From assembly GCA_016184305.1 (NCBI GenBank), contig JACPCX010000133.1, positions 1 through 16,777 of the forward strand: a stretch of 16,777 nt of DNA, written 5' to 3'. The notes under the pieces were generated by a model. The model worked only from the letters and a program-made list of their open reading frames with translations, had not been told where the DNA came from and ran no database searches. Positions 1-16,776 of the stretch are shown here, one piece after another (position 1 is the first letter of the stretch; each line of letters begins with the position of its first letter). The position numbers and the translations under genes were made by a program. The stretch is from Candidatus Rokuibacteriota bacterium. Its GTDB lineage: Bacteria > Methylomirabilota > Methylomirabilia > Rokubacteriales > CSP1-6.

Positions 1-2
1 CC

Positions 3-452
3 CATGTCCCGGCCCGCGTGGCGGCCGTGCTGTCCATCGCCCTCGGGCTCTGGATGTTGAAGGACTACTTCATCCCGGACCTCGGGGTCCGCCTTCAGGC
101 GCCCGCCGCGGTCGGCGAATGGGCTCGGGCGTCCGCCCGTCGGATGACGGTGCCCGGTCTCGTCGCCGGCGGTATCGTCATCGGGCTCTGCACCGTTCCG
201 TGCAGTGGCGCCGTCTACCTCGCGGTGCTCTCGCTGCTGGCCGCTCAGGCGGACCGCCTGGCCGGCTTCGGCTATCTCCTCCTCTACAACGTGATGTTCA
301 TCCTGCCCCTGGCCGCGCTCCTCGTCGCCTCCTCCTCCCGCCCCGTGCTGGCCCGCCTCGCCCGGTGGAACCTCGCGCACCGGGAGCGGATACGCCTCGG
401 GCTCGGGACGGGCGTCGTGCTGCTGGGCTTCGCGATCCTGGTCACGGTGTGA
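3..452 (+). CDS. CcdA/DsbD-type cytochrome c biogenesis transmembrane protein, C-terminal part (5' end lies outside the window)
   Basis: The frame is open from the window edge. Several hydrophobic helices and the motif GLCTVPCSGAVYLAVL, followed by YLLLYNVMFILPL, resemble the C-terminal half of CcdA-like proteins. Confidence 0.75.
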   Translation, partial: HVPARVAAVLSIALGLWMLKDYFIPDLGVRLQAPAAVGEWARASARRMTVPGLVAGGIVIGLCTVPCSGAVYLAVLSLLAAQADRLAGFGYLLLYNVMFILPLAALLVASSSRPVLARLARWNLAHRERIRLGLGTGVVLLGFAILVTV

Positions 453-955
453 GGCGCGCGCACCGTCTCGCGCGCCTCGCGGCCGCGCCTGTCGCGCTAG
501 CGCTGCTCCTCCTTGCGGCGGGCTGCGGCCGCCCGCCCAACGTCCCGCCCTCGCTGGCCGGCCTGCCCCTCACCCATACCACGCAGGGCGCGGAGGCGCT
601 CGCGGAGATCGGGCGCCTGCACGGCAAGCGGATCCTGCTGCGGGACGCCTGGGTGGCCCATTACGAGCGCAACGCCGCCGTCGCCATGCTCTACGTCTCG
701 CGCTCGTATCTCGGTCCAGTCGCGCGGTGGCAGTTCTCGCGCATGGTCGACGGGATCGGACGCGGCGCGGCGAACGCCGAGGGGCGCTTCACCCACCTGA
801 GGCACCGAGACGAGGCCGGCATCCCGCTCTATTCGGCGCTCGGGCTCGGCCAAGTCCACTACTTCTACCGCAGCGGGCCGGCCATCGTCTGGCTTGCGGC
901 GGATGCGGAGATTGCCCGCGCAGCGGTCGCCGACACGATCCGTCGGGTCCGTTGA
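449..955 (+). CDS. Hypothetical lipoprotein (168 aa)
   Basis: GTG at 449 overlaps the upstream TGA (GTGA coupling). A basic N-terminus and hydrophobic stretch lead to the lipobox LAAG-C. This is the 3' part of ORF 119..955. Confidence 0.75.
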   Translation: MRRAHRLARLAAAPVALALLLLAAGCGRPPNVPPSLAGLPLTHTTQGAEALAEIGRLHGKRILLRDAWVAHYERNAAVAMLYVSRSYLGPVARWQFSRMVDGIGRGAANAEGRFTHLRHRDEAGIPLYSALGLGQVHYFYRSGPAIVWLAADAEIARAAVADTIRRVR

Positions 956-1117
956 GGGAGCGGCGCGTTCATGGCCGCCAGCATGCAGTTTTGTGGAGCC
1001 GGCCAGCGACCTGATCGCGCACCGGCAACAGAGCACAGAAGCGGGGGCGAGATGAGACTGATCACGAGAGGTGACGATGAACGGCAAGATCTTCCGGAAC
1101 GTCGATGGAGGCATGCG

Positions 1118-1663
1118 GTGGGCCGAGCCTCGCTGACAGTCACGGCCGTCTTCCTCCTCGTGACCGGGGCGCCTTTCGGCGCGGCCGCCGGCGGGGCGAA
1201 ACACCCGTTCGACGCGATGGCTGTCCATCGCCCCGCCGAGCCCTTCGCGGCGCCCGAGCTCGTCTTGACGTCGCTCGATGGGGGGGAGGTGCGGCTCAGC
1301 GCCTTGCGCGGGAAGGTGATCGTGCTTGGCTTCTTCACGACCACGTGACCGAACTGCCGGCGGGAGGCTCCCGCCAAGGCAAAGCTGTACCGGGAGTTCA
1401 GCGGGAAAGGCGTCGAGTTCGTGGGCGTCGCGTTGCGCGAGAACGCGGCGGCGGTCAGGGCCTTCGCCCGCGAGTTCGGGATCGAGTTTCCGCTCTGGCT
1501 CGAGCCGCAGGGCCGGAGTCCTGCCGCCTTCGGCGTATGGGGCCACCCCAGCACGATCCTCATCGACCGGGCGGGCACAGTCGTCGGGCGGGTGCGCGGC
1601 GAGCGCGACTGGGACACGAGAGACGCCCGCCGTCTCCTCCAGTCGCTGCTGGACACGAAGTGA
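1118..1663 (+). CDS. TlpA/ResA-like redoxin (thioredoxin fold), putative selenoprotein with a UxxC motif (TGA at 1346-1348 read as Sec)
   Basis: ORFs 971..1348 and 1421..1663 are in the same frame. Reading through TGA gives APELVLTSLDGGEVRLSALRGKVIVLGFFTTT-U-PNCRREAP...VEFVGV...FGVWGHPSTILIDRAGTVV...GERDW, a complete TlpA-like domain. SD GGAGG (1107-1111) precedes GTG 1118 and a signal-peptide-like N-terminus. ATG 1052 is an alternative start. Confidence 0.88.
1359..1375 (+). promoter_or_regulatory. Putative bacterial SECIS hairpin
   Basis: GGCGGGA-GGC-TCCCGCC forms a perfect 7-bp stem starting 11 nt after the UGA, and the loop begins with G. This matches the known geometry of bacterial SECIS elements. 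Confidence 0.7.
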
Positions 1664-1778
1664 GGGGACGCGTCCGCGCGTGCGCGCCAGGCCAGGGCCG
1701 AGGTGACGGGCACGGCCCGGCGGATGCGTAACGGCGACGCCGGACAAGACGCGCTGGGTGCCACTTCAGGAGGGTGCA

Positions 1779-1985
1779 ATGGCGATCGAGACCGCTGAGA
1801 AATACTGCCCGATCTGTGGGAAGCAGGTGACCGAGCCGACGTTCAACCGCTTCGGCGAATGGGCCTGCTCGGAGGCGCACGCCGACGAGTACGTGAAGGA
1901 GGTGCGAGCCCAGAAGATGCGCGCGGCGGCTCCCGCCCCGGAGCAGCAGCCGCAGCGGCCTCCGCGGCAGATGCGCGGGGGCTGA
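1779..1985 (+). CDS. Small TRASH/YHS-like metal-binding protein (68 aa)
   Basis: SD AGGAGG at 1768-1773 and ATG at 1779. Motif YCPICG-x-RFGEWACSEAH (CxxC-x16-CSxxH). A paralogous domain is present in 2327..2869. Confidence 0.8.
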   Translation: MAIETAEKYCPICGKQVTEPTFNRFGEWACSEAHADEYVKEVRAQKMRAAAPAPEQQPQRPPRQMRGG

Positions 1986-2189
1986 GCGCGGAAGCGGAGG
2001 TATGCGGTGAACAGCCCCGCACCCTCCACGCCGATCGTGAGGGACAGTGCGGATGTCGAGCCGCGTGCGGTCTGATCCCGGGCGGCGCCGTGGCGGCGCC
2101 TCCCGGGACCGCGTCGGCCGGAGATCCGTGAGTTGAGCTGGCGGACACGGCCGCGGACGCGGACTACGAGGGCCGGGTTACGGCGCAGC

Positions 2190-2273
2190 GGGCGCTTGCC
2201 GAAGATGCCGGCGCTGGGCGTCACGAAGGGGCAGGCGCGCACGTCGGTGGACTACGTGATGAGCCTGAAGTAA
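2190..2273 (+). pseudogene. Possible C-terminal remnant of a c-type cytochrome
   Basis: The frame ending at TAA 2271-2273 reads LPKMPALGVTKGQARTSVDYVMSLK*, resembling the MP axial-ligand motif and C-terminal helix of class I cytochromes c. No CxxCH or credible start lies upstream in frame. Confidence 0.4.
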
Positions 2274-2326
2274 TGACCACACGGAGGCGTAAACGCGTGA
2301 AGCGAGATAGACGAGGAGGAGTGGAC

Positions 2327-2869
2327 ATGACTGAGTCATCGCGGGACAGATCATCACGGGAAGGCAACGGACAGCACATCGCACTCTCTGTGGTGCCGGT
2401 CGCTTCCAGGAACGGGCCACCACCGCTCCAGGCGGCAGGCCAGGCGCGGTACTGCGCGTTCTGCGGCGCGGAAGTCGGTCAGGAGGGCGCGCCGGAGCGC
2501 TTCGGCGAGATCTTCTGCTCCGACGCGCATGCCGAGGAGTTCCTCACAGGCGTGCGGGCGGTCCGGGGCGAGGGTGCCGTCGCGGGTGGCGCCGAGATCC
2601 AGCGCACGGGCGAGACGGCCCCGGAGCAGCCGACCGGCGCCGCAAAGCCCTGGGACTGGAAGATGGCGCTCAAGATGGCCGCCTGCTGCGGCGCGCCTGT
2701 CCTGGCCCTCGTCGTCCTCGCCGGCGGTGGAGGCGCCCTGCTCGGCGCGGCCGGATCCCTCCTCCCCGTGCTGGCGTTCCTTGCGTGTCCAATCGGCATG
2801 TACTTCATGATGCGCGGCATGTCGAAGGGCCATCAGCAACAGCCGAAGGACAAAGATCAAGGCAAGTGA
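2327..2869 (+). CDS. Membrane protein with a TRASH-like domain, a CC-containing helix and a DUF2933-like C-terminus (180 aa)
   Basis: SD GAGGAGGAG precedes ATG 2327. Contains YCAFCG...RFGEIFCSDAH, then AACCGAPVL, then LLPVLAFLACPIGMYFMMRGM (the DUF2933-type LACP..M.FM pattern). Confidence 0.8.
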   Translation: MTESSRDRSSREGNGQHIALSVVPVASRNGPPPLQAAGQARYCAFCGAEVGQEGAPERFGEIFCSDAHAEEFLTGVRAVRGEGAVAGGAEIQRTGETAPEQPTGAAKPWDWKMALKMAACCGAPVLALVVLAGGGGALLGAAGSLLPVLAFLACPIGMYFMMRGMSKGHQQQPKDKDQGK

Positions 2870-3460: not shown

Positions 3461-4294
3461 ATGGGGACTTCCGTGAAACAGCTGACGTCCGCTTGGCGTA
3501 TAGGTCGCTGGGTCGTCGTGGTGCTCGTGCTCGCGTTGCTCTTGAAGGCAGTGGCCGATATCCTGCGTGGCGCGCCCGGCGGTCATAATGTCCCGTTCGA
3601 GTACTGGTACGGGCACTGGCGGCAGGCTCTCGTCCTCTCGGCGGTCTTCCTCGCCTTCCTGCTGGGGTTCGCCCGGCCCCGGCGCCGGGGCGAGTGGCGG
3701 AACGCCGGGCTCTCGGCGGCATTCTTGATCTCGCTCTTCACCGAGATGTTCGGAATCCCGTTGACCATCTACCTGCTCGCACCTCTGCTCGGCGTTCCGG
3801 CGTCTGCGTTCGGGATGAACGAGAGCCACCTGTGGGCCCTTGCTCTGGATCGCCTCGGTCTGCTCCCGCTGCAGGCCGGGGTCTACCTGGTCATGACGGT
3901 AAGTGTCGTCCTCATCGCGATCGGTCTCTCGCTGCTCGCCGTTGGCTGGGCCACCGTCTATCGGGGACGGGATCGGTTGGTGACGGACGGTATCTACCGC
4001 TACCTCCGGCACCCTCAGTACCTCGGCCTGATGCTGATCGTCTTCGGCTTCAACATCATGTGGCCGACTGTCCTCACCCTCCTGATGGCGCCGGTGCTCA
4101 TCGTCATGTATCTCCGCCTGGCGCGCCGCGAAGACGAGGAGCTGGCGACGTTCTTTGGCGAGACGTTCTTGGACTACGCCGCCCGGACGCGGGCGTTCCT
4201 TCCATGGGGGCGAGGCCGAGCGGTGCCGCCCCGCGGCACGCCGGAACGCCGTCCCCGGGATGCCGCAACGCGCGCAGGCGGGGAGCAAGAATGA
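3461..4294 (+). CDS. Isoprenylcysteine carboxylmethyltransferase (ICMT/PEMT, Ste14-like) family membrane protein
   Basis: Motifs LFTEMFGIPLTIYLL, ESHLW, LVTDGIYRYLRHPQY and ARREDEEL...FGETFLDY. Start is uncertain (3425, 3461 or 3473). Confidence 0.88.
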   Translation: MGTSVKQLTSAWRIGRWVVVVLVLALLLKAVADILRGAPGGHNVPFEYWYGHWRQALVLSAVFLAFLLGFARPRRRGEWRNAGLSAAFLISLFTEMFGIPLTIYLLAPLLGVPASAFGMNESHLWALALDRLGLLPLQAGVYLVMTVSVVLIAIGLSLLAVGWATVYRGRDRLVTDGIYRYLRHPQYLGLMLIVFGFNIMWPTVLTLLMAPVLIVMYLRLARREDEELATFFGETFLDYAARTRAFLPWGRGRAVPPRGTPERRPRDAATRAGGEQE

Positions 4295-4722
4295 CACTGC
4301 TGCCCCGCTGGCGCTTGGATTTGCTCTCCGGGTTGATCTTCTGGCTGGCGACGATCCCGTGGGTGGCGCCGACGATGCTGCACAATGGCGACGTGCCGTG
4401 GCCACTGGCCGGGGCTGTACTGCTCGCTCTCTCCGGCTACCTGGCCCTCTACCCGGCAGCCTTCTGCTGGCTCCTCGGCGGGACCCCGCTGCGCTCGAGC
4501 GCTGCGTACGTGGCCGTCGCGGCGAGCGGCACGATTCTGTTCACGCCAGGCTTCTGGGTTGCGGTGATCGTCGGCATCGTGCCCCGCATTCGCCCGCCGG
4601 TCAGGCAGAGCAAGCAGTCTCGCTCGAACGCGGCCCTCGATGTGCTCCGTCAACCGTACGCGCACGGAGAGATCAAGAGCGAGGAGTTCGAGGCGAGGAC
4701 AGGCGACCCCCGGGGCGGTTAG
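4291..4722 (+). pseudogene. Chimeric or degenerate ORF: Lnt N-terminal membrane fragment fused in frame to a SHOCT-domain C-terminus
   Basis: ATG 4291 overlaps the upstream stop (ATGA). GLIFWLATIPWVAPTM..GDVPWPLA..LLALSGYLALYPAAF aligns by eye with the Lnt at 8711..10189 (GMVFYPLNLSWVTHAM..GGLSWAL..LLLSLYLAVYVGVF). The C-terminal ALDVLRQPYAHGEIKSEEFEAR is SHOCT-like. Confidence 0.65.
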
Positions 4723-11411: not shown

Positions 11412-12295
11412 TCACGGATGACCACGTTCCGCCCGGGAAGAGGTCGCGATCGGAGCCAAGGCCGCGTAGAGCGGCGGCGCGATCTCCGAGACGAGGCTCA
11501 GGGCGTCCTCGAGCGCGCCGCCGCTCTCTGCCGGGATCCCGAGGCGCACCAGCATCGCATCGGCCTGCCGCCGGAACAGGATCTCGCGCATCAGCGCCAG
11601 CCGATAGCGATAGTCGTCGCCGTAGACACGCCGGCCGAGCTGACGCCAGTACACCACCGCCAGCGGCCCGCCCTGCTTGTAGCCGACCACGGCCGGCAAC
11701 CGAACCGGTGTTGCGCCGTTCAAGACTACTGGAATGGCGACGCGGTCGATCCGGCTGGTGTTCGCCTCCGGGAAGATGCGGTCGATGGAGCCCCGCCGCT
11801 TCGGATCGTCCTCGCGCGCGAAGAACGCGACCGAGACCCAGACGACCTGGCCCGCGCGCCGGTAGGTCCGCCGAAGAGCCGCCTTCTCATGAGATAGGGG
11901 AGGGGGATCATGAAGAGCAGGAACCCGATTCCTGACCAGACATGCCGGGCGACGCGGGCGCCGGCCAGGAAGAGCACCGTCCCCAGCAGCATGACGGGCA
12001 GCGACACGCGAGCGAGGAACGGCTCGCCGCCCAGGGACCCGAGCGCGAGGGCGGCGAGCCCGAGCACCACGAGAGGGAGCCCGAGCGGAGAGGACCCCAG
12101 GGCCTCCCGCGCGATCCGCTCCCTGCGAGCCCAGATCAGGTACGCCGCGATGAAGGGAATCGCGAAGCCGTGGGAGAGGTTCGGAAACGCCGCCCACTCC
12201 GCCACCATGGCGGGCACGACCGGCGCGTAGATGCCGAGGATCGCCGCCACCCCGGCCCCGAGCGGAATCCACGGAGCCGAAGGACTCACCGGCAT
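11412..12295 (-). pseudogene. Exosortase / EpsI-family gene with an internal deletion and frameshift
   Basis: ATG 12295 (SD GAGGAG) starts an exosortase N-terminus (W...PNLSHGFAIPFIAAYLIW...FLLFMIPLPY) that breaks off near 11892. A different frame then carries an EpsI-like C-terminal domain (LRRTY....VWVSVAFF...LAVVYW.Q.GRR...DAMLVRL) to TGA 11412. The catalytic exosortase region is missing. Confidence 0.8.
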
Positions 12296-12336
12296 CGTCG
12301 AGCTCCTCACAGCGGCCCCCGGCAGCACGGGTGAAG

Positions 12337-12804
12337 TCAGCGGGACCTCCGCGCGATCGCATGGCCCGCGTCCGCCCAGGCGACCATTCCCCCGTCGAGG
12401 TTCCACACGTCCGTGTAGCCGAGCTGGACCAGCGTGCGCGCGGCGATGGCGCTCATGGCCCCGCTCCGGCAATAGACGACGAGCCGCGCTCTCTTGTCGG
12501 CCGGCAGCTTGCTCAGGTTCGCCTCCACCTGGTCGAAGGGGATGAAGAGGTCGGTGGGGCGGATCTCGCCGGCATAGGGGGTGTGGACATTGATCAGCGC
12601 GAAGCTCTTGTTCTCGAGGAGGCGCACGAGTCCGGCCGGGCCCACGTCGGTGTACCTCCCCCCTGCCCCGACGAGCACCGTCCGCGTTTGGGGGCTGGGC
12701 TCGCCGGCCGCCAGCGCCCTCCAGGGACCGGGCAGAATCAGGACCGCCAGGCCAAGAAGCATCGCCCCGACCAGATGGTCCCGCGAGCGTCTCCGGAATG
12801 TCAT
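12337..12804 (-). CDS. Exported rhodanese-like domain protein
   Basis: Signal peptide ending in ALA. Motifs LINVH.PY.GEI..TD, LVVYCRSGAMS (active-site loop) and LGYTDVWNLDGGMVAW. SD AGGAGG. Confidence 0.9.
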   Translation of the reverse strand: MTFRRRSRDHLVGAMLLGLAVLILPGPWRALAAGEPSPQTRTVLVGAGGRYTDVGPAGLVRLLENKSFALINVHTPYAGEIRPTDLFIPFDQVEANLSKLPADKRARLVVYCRSGAMSAIAARTLVQLGYTDVWNLDGGMVAWADAGHAIARRSR

Positions 12805-15367: not shown

Positions 15368-15380
15368 TTTCAGTTGCTTG
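15368..15380 (+). promoter_or_regulatory. Possible IHF site between the sigma-54 promoter and its UAS
   Basis: TTTCAGTTGCTTG has one mismatch to WATCAR-N4-TTR and sits in a locally AT-rich patch. Confidence 0.35.
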
Positions 15381-15432
15381 CTGGGGGGTCCGGAAAGCTG
15401 GATCCAGCCGTTCGTCGGAATTGTCGAGGGCC

Positions 15433-15450
15433 GTCGACATCTGTGTCGAC
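15433..15450. promoter_or_regulatory. Inverted repeat, candidate UAS
   Basis: GTCGACA-TCTG-TGTCGAC has perfect 7-bp arms and lies about 95 bp upstream of the sigma-54 site. It shares GTCGACATC with 8658-8666. Confidence 0.5.
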
Positions 15451-15476
15451 CGGTAGGGCGGGCGGCGACGGAGGCG

Positions 15477-16776
15477 TCACCGGGACGCCTTCTGCGCCGG
15501 CCTCGTCTCCTGCTCCAGACGCTGCCGCGCCTGCGCGAGGACAGAGCCCACATGATCCCGGTCTTCGCGCGAGAGGTCCTGGGCCATCAGCGCCTCCCAT
15601 GTCCTGATCGCCTCGCCGGTCTTCCCCGGTGCCTCGTAGAGGACCAGCCCCTTCCCCCAGAGCGCCTGAGCCAATTTCGGCTCCTGCGACAGCGCTCGGT
15701 CGAATTCGGTGAGGGCCCGGTCCGGATGCCCCCCGCGGAGGAGGATGAGGCCGAGATACGCGCGAGCGCCCGGGTGCTCGGGATCGACCTCCAGTGCACG
15801 CTGAAACAGGCGGAGGGCGCGTCCGAGGTCCTCGGCCTCCATGGCCCGCCGACCCTGGTCGAGCAAGGCCGGCAGATCTCGCGACTCCACGGGAAGCGCC
15901 GCGTTCCCCGTTCCGGTGAGGAACCCCCCAGTCATCGAACCTCCGTCCCGCGATCGCAGCGACCGGGGAAGGAAGAATCCGATCGCCGCGCCGAACCCCA
16001 CGAGGAAGAGCGCCGCGGCCACCCAGCGCCAGGCCCGAAAGGCTGGAGCCCGCGGTGCGCGCTCCGCACGGGGAGCCTCCGTGGCCCCTTCGGCCGGGGC
16101 GCCCCGCGGTGGCTCCTTCAGCGAGGCCAGCGCCAGGGCAGCCCGGGTCTCGTAGAGCGTGCGAGGCCAGCGCCAGGGCAGCCCGGGTCTCGTAGAGCGT
16201 GCGTAGCTCCTCGTAGTCATGAGCGGACAGTGCCCCCGCGCGGTGGTCGAACTCGAGCTCCCGCAGCCCCTCGACGAGCCGCGCCCCCTCGGGCGGCAGC
16301 GCCGAGGGCGCCTCGTGGACCAGGGCACGCACGCGGGCGAGAGCCGCAGCATCCACCGGCGCCGGCGGCGCCGCCCCGCGGCGCGCCCACCGTCTCAGGA
16401 CCCACACGGCCCCACCGAGCCCCATGGCCGCGCCGAGCCCGGGGAGCACCCAGAGCAGCAGACCGAATCCGCGCGCCGCCGGCGAGAGCAGGATCCACTC
16501 GCCGTACTTCGAGACGAAGTAGGCCCGGATCTCGTCGGGGCTCGTCCCGGCCGCGAGCTGATCCGCGATCAGGGCCTTCATCTCCCGGGCCATCTCGGAG
16601 GGCGATTCGGCCACCGACAGGTTCTGGCACACGGGGCAGCGCAGTCCGGCGGCGATCTCGCGCACCGTGGCGTCGAGGTCCTCCTTCGCGCCGGCCGCGG
16701 TCGCGAGGAGCAGCGATCCGACGAGCGCGGCCAGCAACCGGCCCGTCCGGGCTCTACTGGATCGAGCGGTAGTCAC
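15477..16776 (-). pseudogene. ccmH: CcmH (LRCxxC) fused to a CcmI/CycH-like TPR region, frameshifted by a 40-bp duplication
   Basis: LRCPVCQNLSVAESPSEMA...YFVSKYGEWILLSP, a TM helix and LRELEFD..AG.LS..DY..LR lie in one frame, and the TPR repeats lie in another. Removing one 40-bp copy gives a continuous 419-aa ORF. The start is at the window edge and is uncertain. Confidence 0.85.
16121..16200. repeat. Exact 40-bp tandem duplication
   Basis: gcgaggccagcgccagggcagcccgggtctcgtagagcgt occurs at 16121-16160 and again at 16161-16200. Confidence 0.97.

Follow-up and report, generated by a model that had tools for sequence, protein, structure and literature searches.

Positions 1118 to 1663 of the 16,777-nt contig analysed here (C70 of genome G000, Candidatus Rokuibacteriota; the whole contig is referred to as the window) hold a reading frame that is interrupted by a TGA codon. 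The question raised by this locus is whether that codon is read as selenocysteine (Sec) and, if it is, what the resulting protein might do. An earlier note, made from the letters alone, had proposed that the two halves form one 181-amino-acid UxxC selenoprotein with a SECIS hairpin, apparently exported. We found this to be the best reading of the locus, with a predicted signal peptide and with Sec insertion and export as predicted properties, and on sequence grounds it is very likely that 1118..1663 encodes one exported selenocysteine enzyme of the thioredoxin type. The gene is called the redoxin gene below, and the features of the locus are collected in Table 1.

Reading frame, predicted fold and predicted export

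The frame runs from the GTG start through 76 codons to the TGA (codon 77), followed by 104 codons and a stop at 1661-1663, and the sequence around codon 77 is FFTTT-TGA-PNC. The read-through protein was matched by two Pfam families across the TGA, each above its cut-off: AhpC-TSA (residues 44-156, E 1e-22) and Redoxin (residues 45-171). The TGA aligned with the first Cys of ResA and of the Cys paralogues, as is expected of a bacterial selenoprotein. The proposal that the TGA occupies the first-Cys position, with thioredoxin-like sequence on both sides and a GHPST motif downstream, was thus borne out by the alignment, by the Pfam matches that span the codon, and by the presence of His143-Pro144.

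A PDB search using a profile of 14 redoxin orthologues ranked ResA first (E 1e-30), and the predicted structure (pLDDT 90) was nearest to ResA and then to DsbE-/TlpA-type structures, including the TlpA-ScoI mixed disulfide 4txo. The model has a thioredoxin fold with an N-terminal hairpin and an inserted strand-helix, as in the TlpA/ResA/DsbE-like proteins of PF00578/PF08534. In the model and the alignment, as in those proteins, U77-P-N-C80 precedes a helix (residues 78-94) and an invariant Pro144 lies in the facing loop.

Residues 1-30 were modelled at a pLDDT of about 56-65. The N terminus has a hydropathy of 2.41. Judged by hydropathy only, 87 of the 88 orthologue loci encode a hydrophobic segment there, and none of the 88 has a lipobox. 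This sequence fits a cleaved signal peptide, and export is predicted. The ATG at 1052, which belongs to the remnant of an upstream gene described below, now shares the frame of the redoxin gene, and translation might alternatively begin there. A promoter and terminator scan of window positions 1-2400 found none.

Table 1. Features of the redoxin locus and of related loci (window coordinates unless a locus or contig is named)
Feature	Position	Strand	Basis or remark
3' half of membrane protein with two conserved Pro-Cys motifs; candidate electron donor (putative role)	3..452	+	Pfam: weak SfLAP only
Propeller gene, 5' remnant (ATG 1052, M-R-L-I-T)	1052..1067	+	Alignment to L020
Propeller gene, 3' remnant; its stop overlaps the redoxin start by 19 nt	1073..1136	+	Alignment to L020
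GGAGG, putative ribosome-binding site, 6 nt 5' of GTG 1118	1107..1111	+	Sequence
Redoxin gene, 181-aa ResA/TlpA-like, U77-P-N-C80	1118..1663	+	TGA read-through, Pfam, NCBIfam, PDB profile, model
Predicted cleavable signal peptide	1118..1189	+	Hydrophobic residues 6-16, A-A-A at 22-24, no lipobox
Predicted selenocysteine codon, in-frame TGA, first position of CxxC	1346..1348	+	Sequence, orthologue alignment
SECIS-type hairpin GGCGGGA-GGC-TCCCGCC	1359..1375	+	Starts at the 11th base after the TGA
His143-Pro144, cis-Pro loop	1544..1549	+	Cis conformation predicted from homology
Small Cys/His protein CPICG...CSEAH, directly 3' of the redoxin gene	1779..1985	+	No Pfam match
Intact propeller copies	L020:3108-4010, L081-L110, L143
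Second Sec TlpA-like clade	L027, L030-L033, L035, L037, L038, L040, L041, L043-L045, L049, L050
Other read-through genes of G000	Contigs C8, C10, C18, C52, C80, C118, C121, C128, C142, C162, C173, C200, C215, C220, C227

The TGA codon, the hairpin and probable selenocysteine decoding

Conservation of the TGA was evaluated in genomes and in metagenomes. Among 251 genomes of the phylum there were 13 redoxin matches at E<=1e-40, that of the source genome included, and all 13 have a single TGA at codon 77. In the best 80 of 129 confirmed metagenome relatives the codon is TGA in 79 and TCA in one (L150), with no Cys codon; the scan used two search patterns, one of them the Cys form, so that Cys versions would have been caught. 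Orthologues with protein identities as low as about 48% retain the TGA. Exceptions among the relatives are the TCA in L150 and an Arg at the site in P0002, the latter seen at the protein level, and the G041 orthologue carries a frameshift directly after the hairpin. Near-length database matches for the subfamily consist of split fragments and one Arg variant. In the window itself, the TGA is covered without a differing letter by contigs of three runs (X1 record 2, X2 record 19 and X5 record 27, the last of which ends at the TGA codon); X1 is possibly the source sample, X2 is from the same study as X1, and X5 is from a different study.

The hairpin described in the earlier note lies where it had been placed, and can be drawn with a 6-bp stem and an AGGCU loop or with a 7-bp stem and a GGC loop. 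The bSECIS model, as set out in PMC13188914, allows a loop of 3-9 nt with a G within its first two bases, a stem of 4-16 bp, a distance of 16-37 nt from the UGA and a minimum free energy of <= -7.5 kcal/mol. The redoxin hairpin falls within all of these limits, with a loop of 3 or 5 nt, a stem of 6-7 bp, a codon-to-loop distance of 16-17 nt and a value of -18.7 kcal/mol. Folding of the 60-nt window after the TGA gave z -0.96, and windows trimmed post hoc to the hairpin gave z -2.3 and -3.1. A comparable stem follows 4234 of 69502 TGA triplets (6.1%) by chance in this 70% GC genome, and by itself the hairpin is modest to weak evidence; it rises above chance because it is conserved across orthologues. 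In 15 genome loci, 98.9% of the hairpin cells are paired and one pair changes from G-C to U-A in 4 of 15; the other five of the six stem pairs are invariant, and the covariation rests on that single pair. A stem of at least 6 bp is present in 77 of 80 redoxin orthologues, and none of the 40 Cys paralogues from those loci has one. The codons under the hairpin in the 80 metagenome loci are nearly fixed (CGG 80/80, GAG 80/80, GCT 79/80, CCC 79/80), and the usage of these codons in the source genome is 34, 91, 4.5 and 39%, respectively. The 80 loci comprise only 44 distinct 40-mers and are kin, and the counts are not independent.

The earlier note had also pointed to the Sec machinery of the genome, and here the outcome was divided. 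A selD gene, itself with an in-frame TGA, and many read-through genes are present, but selA, selB and tRNA-Sec were not found in the assembly (88.8% complete, 239 contigs, 25 tRNA calls) using NCBIfam and Rfam profiles, ARAGORN at default settings, and BLAST with the sel loci of relatives. With relaxed settings ARAGORN produced spurious TCA calls by the dozen, and these were discounted. Of 61 relatives searched, 54 have selA, 52 have a selB over cut-off and 54 have tRNA-Sec, and the genes are clustered; both selA and selB are present in each of the three genomes of the same genus. Since the three genes cluster in relatives, one missing contig would remove all of them, and a lost contig is the simplest explanation for their absence here. 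The sel loci of the same-genus genomes provided no usable flanking synteny by which the cluster could be placed in an assembly gap. Of 41 carriers of the redoxin or propeller gene, 30 have selB over cut-off and 40 have selD. Carriers G012 and G010 (95% and 98% complete) are without selA, selB and tRNA-Sec, and G248 (100%) is without selB; the absence of selB from these three is probably assembly loss. All three nonetheless carry a TGA-containing SelD and redoxin or propeller genes.

In a codon-usage scan of G000, 129 TGAs were flanked on either side by sequence that looks coding, and a hairpin follows 35 of them. Fifteen of the 34 such genes other than redoxin were scanned, and all 15 matched an NCBIfam family across the TGA, four of them over the curated cut-off. 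The (seleno)protein labels among them were UGSC (twice), CYCXC, C-GCAxxG-C-C, WAxxUGC, rhodanese, AhpD-like, DsbA-like, MoeB, Prx-like and SelD. Many of the remaining 19 look like true stops. With an additional peroxiredoxin-like gene containing a TGA, the genome has at least 16 further read-through genes, which belong to selenoprotein types already known. A molybdopterin search gave 11 matches, none with an internal TGA, and a Sec formate dehydrogenase was not found in it. Because so many read-through genes are intact, the source organism almost certainly decodes Sec, as judged from its gene content.

Two rival readings do without Sec at the TGA. If it were a nonsense mutation or sequencing error in a CxxC gene, the hairpin would be one of the 6.1% that occur by chance. 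We reject this reading as vanishingly improbable, given that none of the 80 metagenome loci and none of the 13 genomes has a Cys form and that independent runs are identical; the earlier note had named TGC or TGT in close relatives as the mark of such a lesion, and the orthologues keep the TGA and the hairpin, none having TGC or TGT. Alternatively, the source strain may have lost selA, selB and selC, leaving a silent gene in which the TGA now terminates translation. The failure to find selA, selB and tRNA-Sec and the deleted or fragmentary state of adjacent genes are consistent with such a loss, but the incomplete and fragmented assembly with its low number of tRNA calls, the clustering of sel genes in relatives, and a SelD and at least 16 other read-through genes that are still open on both sides of their TGAs make it highly improbable. 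We regard the selenoprotein reading of the redoxin gene as extremely probable.

A deleted beta-propeller gene and the gene neighbourhood

Directly upstream of the redoxin gene are the remains of a beta-propeller gene. Window positions 996-1067 and 1073 onward flank 826 nt that are present in L020 and are replaced by 5 nt here, and the junction is bridged by contigs in X5 and X14, from two other studies. L141 and L142 have the same deletion junction, L144 has the same 5' break with more 3' sequence, and L143 is intact. L020, a record titled Deltaproteobacteria, has 92-93% DNA identity to window positions 1-1583, and three same-genus genomes are without the orthologue; recent transfer of the island or mis-binning may account for this.

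The intact gene encodes a secreted BNR-repeat beta-propeller with the motif RNPDCF-TGA-GW. The TGA was present in all 43 matches, from 40 of the 251 phylum genomes. Its position was checked in 32 copies (31 loci) and was the same in each. Of the 120 best database homologues, 115 stop at (P/A)DCF, that is, at the TGA codon. A hairpin lies at SECIS distance, with GGT in 28 of 30 copies versus 5.8% genome usage; 93% of its cells are paired and three pairs change on both sides, and shuffle controls were mixed. A second propeller copy, L095:1181-1240 (G039:C182), has TGA at both motif positions (D-TGA-F-TGA-G) and the same hairpin, which at the sequence level is a Cys/Sec exchange at the first motif site. 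G102 also has two TGAs in its propeller. A C-F-C form was not seen, the five full-length matches being C-F-L or without the motif. It is highly probable that the propeller is a real selenoprotein.

The propeller model is predicted to be all-beta (pLDDT 88), with GH74 and YCF48 as its nearest structures. Each of the 34 aligned members matches the F510_1955 family (NF045728), the first with 119 bits against a cut-off of 175, but the propeller differs from that family and from the YCF48/GH74 BNR propellers in its conserved C-F-TGA with hairpin and in four invariant His residues (45, 61, 106 and 133). These residues, with near-invariant Met residues, suggest from sequence that the propeller may bind copper. 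None of the 34 members was matched by an NCBIfam model labelled as a selenoprotein, the family is absent from Table 1 of PMC13188914 in its accessible part, within a literature that was partially covered, and the word 'propeller' does not occur in the main texts of deep-Sep (PMC12013277) and BSepDB (PMC13326102) by word search. We think it fairly probable that this candidate selenoprotein is unpublished.

Across the 33 metagenome loci with a length of at least 3.5 kb, the redoxin gene is accompanied by Sco (22), the propeller (20), a Cys CcmG-like protein (19), CcdA/DsbD_2 (13), a multicopper oxidase (11), PCYCGC (10) and a Prx-like protein (9). Further neighbours, seen in the genome loci, are CopA, CtaG, cupredoxin and an efflux set of the CusA/CusC type. 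The window itself contains no Sco gene, and the one Sco-like match of the genome is on contig C123. Contig C62 carries CopA, cupredoxin and the 5' half of a CcdA-like gene. The window begins with the 3' half of that gene, which makes it probable that the two contigs join. We take the membrane protein encoded by this 3' half to be CcdA/DsbD-like by its motif, and the small Cys/His protein downstream of the redoxin gene is presumably YHS/TRASH-like, again by motif.

Several further observations were made in these regions. A probable lipoprotein (window 449-955; LAAGC lipobox by eye, no Pfam or NCBIfam match) sits between the CcdA-like gene and the deleted propeller. Signs of island decay are seen at 4291-4722 (an Lnt-like N-terminal fragment, by eye), at 11412-12472 (a half-model exosortase match) and at 15370-16776 (a CcmH-like gene with its TPR part in another frame). 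Prx-like genes split by a TGA, with FYMxxx-TGA-xxC and a hairpin, adjoin the redoxin gene in L069:9185-9760 (-), L071:6365-7006 (+), L110 and L170; the TGA was checked in L069, L071 and L170, and two scanned copies were under all NCBIfam cut-offs. At L069:5154-5702 (-), an in-frame TGA (QGIHT-TGA-MAAGD), followed by a stem-loop, connects two ORFs that have no NCBIfam match; this is a single case and may be two genes.

Relation to known redoxins and possible clients

[quoted passage not shown] The redoxin described here has in common with the catalogued TlpA, Prx-like and redoxin families the Pfam domains, the predicted Sec at the first CxxC position and the SECIS element directly after the UGA, but differs from them, compared by description only, in the motif FFTT(T/W)-U-PxC-(R/L)REAPAK and in a His before the cis-Pro. 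It is a new subfamily within an already catalogued selenoprotein class. All 82 subfamily sequences compared have this His directly before the cis-Pro position and none of the 52 other TlpA-like sequences does, the residue there being L/I/V (38 Cys proteins) or P/T (14 other Sec proteins). In a quick tree (86 rows, unrooted, with the subfamily thinned from 82 to 34) the subfamily formed one branch with an SH-aLRT of 100, and a second Sec TlpA-like clade of the phylum, FW(A/T)(T/G)W-U-xxC, formed a separate branch (14 rows, support 98). This second clade is commoner in the phylum and shows FW(A/T)(T/G)W-TGA-xxC-x(E/K/R)ELP and an AGUU(G/A)-loop hairpin with pairwise variation. Literature on Rokubacteria and Methylomirabilota selenoproteins, partially covered, contained no title on the redoxin gene; a Methylomirabilota MAG with 63 predicted selenoprotein genes is cited in PMC13188914.

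Bacillus subtilis ResA is the best match in sequence and structure (target-normalised TM 0.82-0.88); it is extracytoplasmic with CcdA as its partner, and the redoxin is predicted to be exported and has CcdA-type genes nearby. ResA differs in having Cys at both positions and in lacking the cleavable-looking signal of the redoxin, which scored 90.4 bits against the ResA model (NF002854, cut-off 170); resB and resC were not noted among the scanned neighbours. Bradyrhizobium TlpA (1jfu, 4txo, 4txv) has the same fold (query-normalised TM 0.72-0.73) and the redoxin neighbourhood contains Sco genes, but identity is 24-25%, the score against the TlpA model (NF047696) is 62.2 bits (cut-off 230), and TlpA is membrane-anchored and uses Cys in place of the predicted Sec. 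The redoxin also resembles the WAxxUGC selenoprotein (NF041054) in its ResA-like fold and its predicted Sec in the CxxC region; that family has a UGC motif and a 354-position model, to which the U-P-N-C redoxin scored 52 bits (cut-off 300), and a separate, better match to it lies on contig C10 of the same genome. Two other redoxin orthologues were likewise under the ResA and TlpA cut-offs, and no curated family cut-off was reached. Assignment as a strict ResA or TlpA was rejected because the protein is below both curated cut-offs, and assignment as a Sco copper chaperone because its spacing is UxxC and not CxxxC and SCO1-SenC gave no match at E<=0.001.

We propose the following mechanism. SelB bound to the hairpin would decode UGA 1346 as Sec, and the signal peptide would export the redoxin, with cleavage near Ala24. 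A CcdA/DsbD-type membrane protein would then pass electrons from cytoplasmic thioredoxin to the U77-C80 pair. The Sec selenolate would attack client disulfides and Cys80 would resolve the mixed species. This would release the Cys ligands of metal-binding proteins, those of the Sco type among them, for which the action of Bradyrhizobium TlpA on Sco and CuA may serve as a precedent. TlpA keeps Sco and apo-CuA reduced and CcdA feeds ResA, according to PMC9145763. The copper-cluster neighbours and the TlpA/CcdA precedent together point to a periplasmic reductase that would ready Cys ligands for copper loading. We consider the copper-client role moderately probable, and the same holds for the joint statement that the protein is an exported ResA/TlpA-like Sec protein and a periplasmic disulfide reductase for the copper-binding proteins of its cluster.

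The exported selenoprotein might instead serve the C-F-U propeller, the Prx-like selenoprotein or apo-cytochrome c, and not Sco, in a periplasmic antioxidant or cytochrome-maturation relay. No other gene lies directly beside the redoxin gene as often as the propeller (20 of 33 long loci; 38-40 of 80), which in many cases overlaps the redoxin start; a Prx-like gene occurs in 9 of 33 loci, the closest structure, ResA, is a cytochrome c reductant, and the window has a CcmH-like gene. However, the redoxin gene has stayed intact in the window, L141, L142 and L144 despite the propeller deletion, and the cytochrome role could be filled by the separate Cys CcmG-like protein that 19 of 33 loci encode; on balance we hold such clients to be unlikely. 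A further possibility, and a very unlikely one, is that Sec77, Cys80 and His143 form a Sco-like Cu(I) site with no disulfide exchange. In Sco, the site is built from two Cys together with a His of the corresponding loop, and the His conserved throughout the subfamily and the copper-related clusters agree with such a site, but a cis-Pro blocks metal binding by active-site thiolates and Pro144 is invariant, the spacing is of the CxxC type as against the CxxxC of Sco, and both sequence and fold are nearest to ResA/TlpA, with no Sco among the matches listed.

The redoxin may be the reductase of a selenium-dependent periplasmic copper-handling module, in which it would recharge the His/Met-rich C-F-U propeller, with Sco, CcdA and multicopper oxidase as further members. 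Such a module of Rokubacteria and relatives would be undescribed; it is possible but doubtful, with functional coupling as the weak link.

The residue at the cis-Pro loop tunes redox behaviour in thioredoxin-type proteins. The redoxin gene corrects the annotation of the locus and defines a subfamily with an unusual His at that loop, and it connects the use of selenium with periplasmic copper clusters, in a phylum for which a wealth of selenoproteins has already been reported. The C-F-Sec beta-propeller would add a fold outside the current selenoprotein table, and most of the value of the locus lies there.
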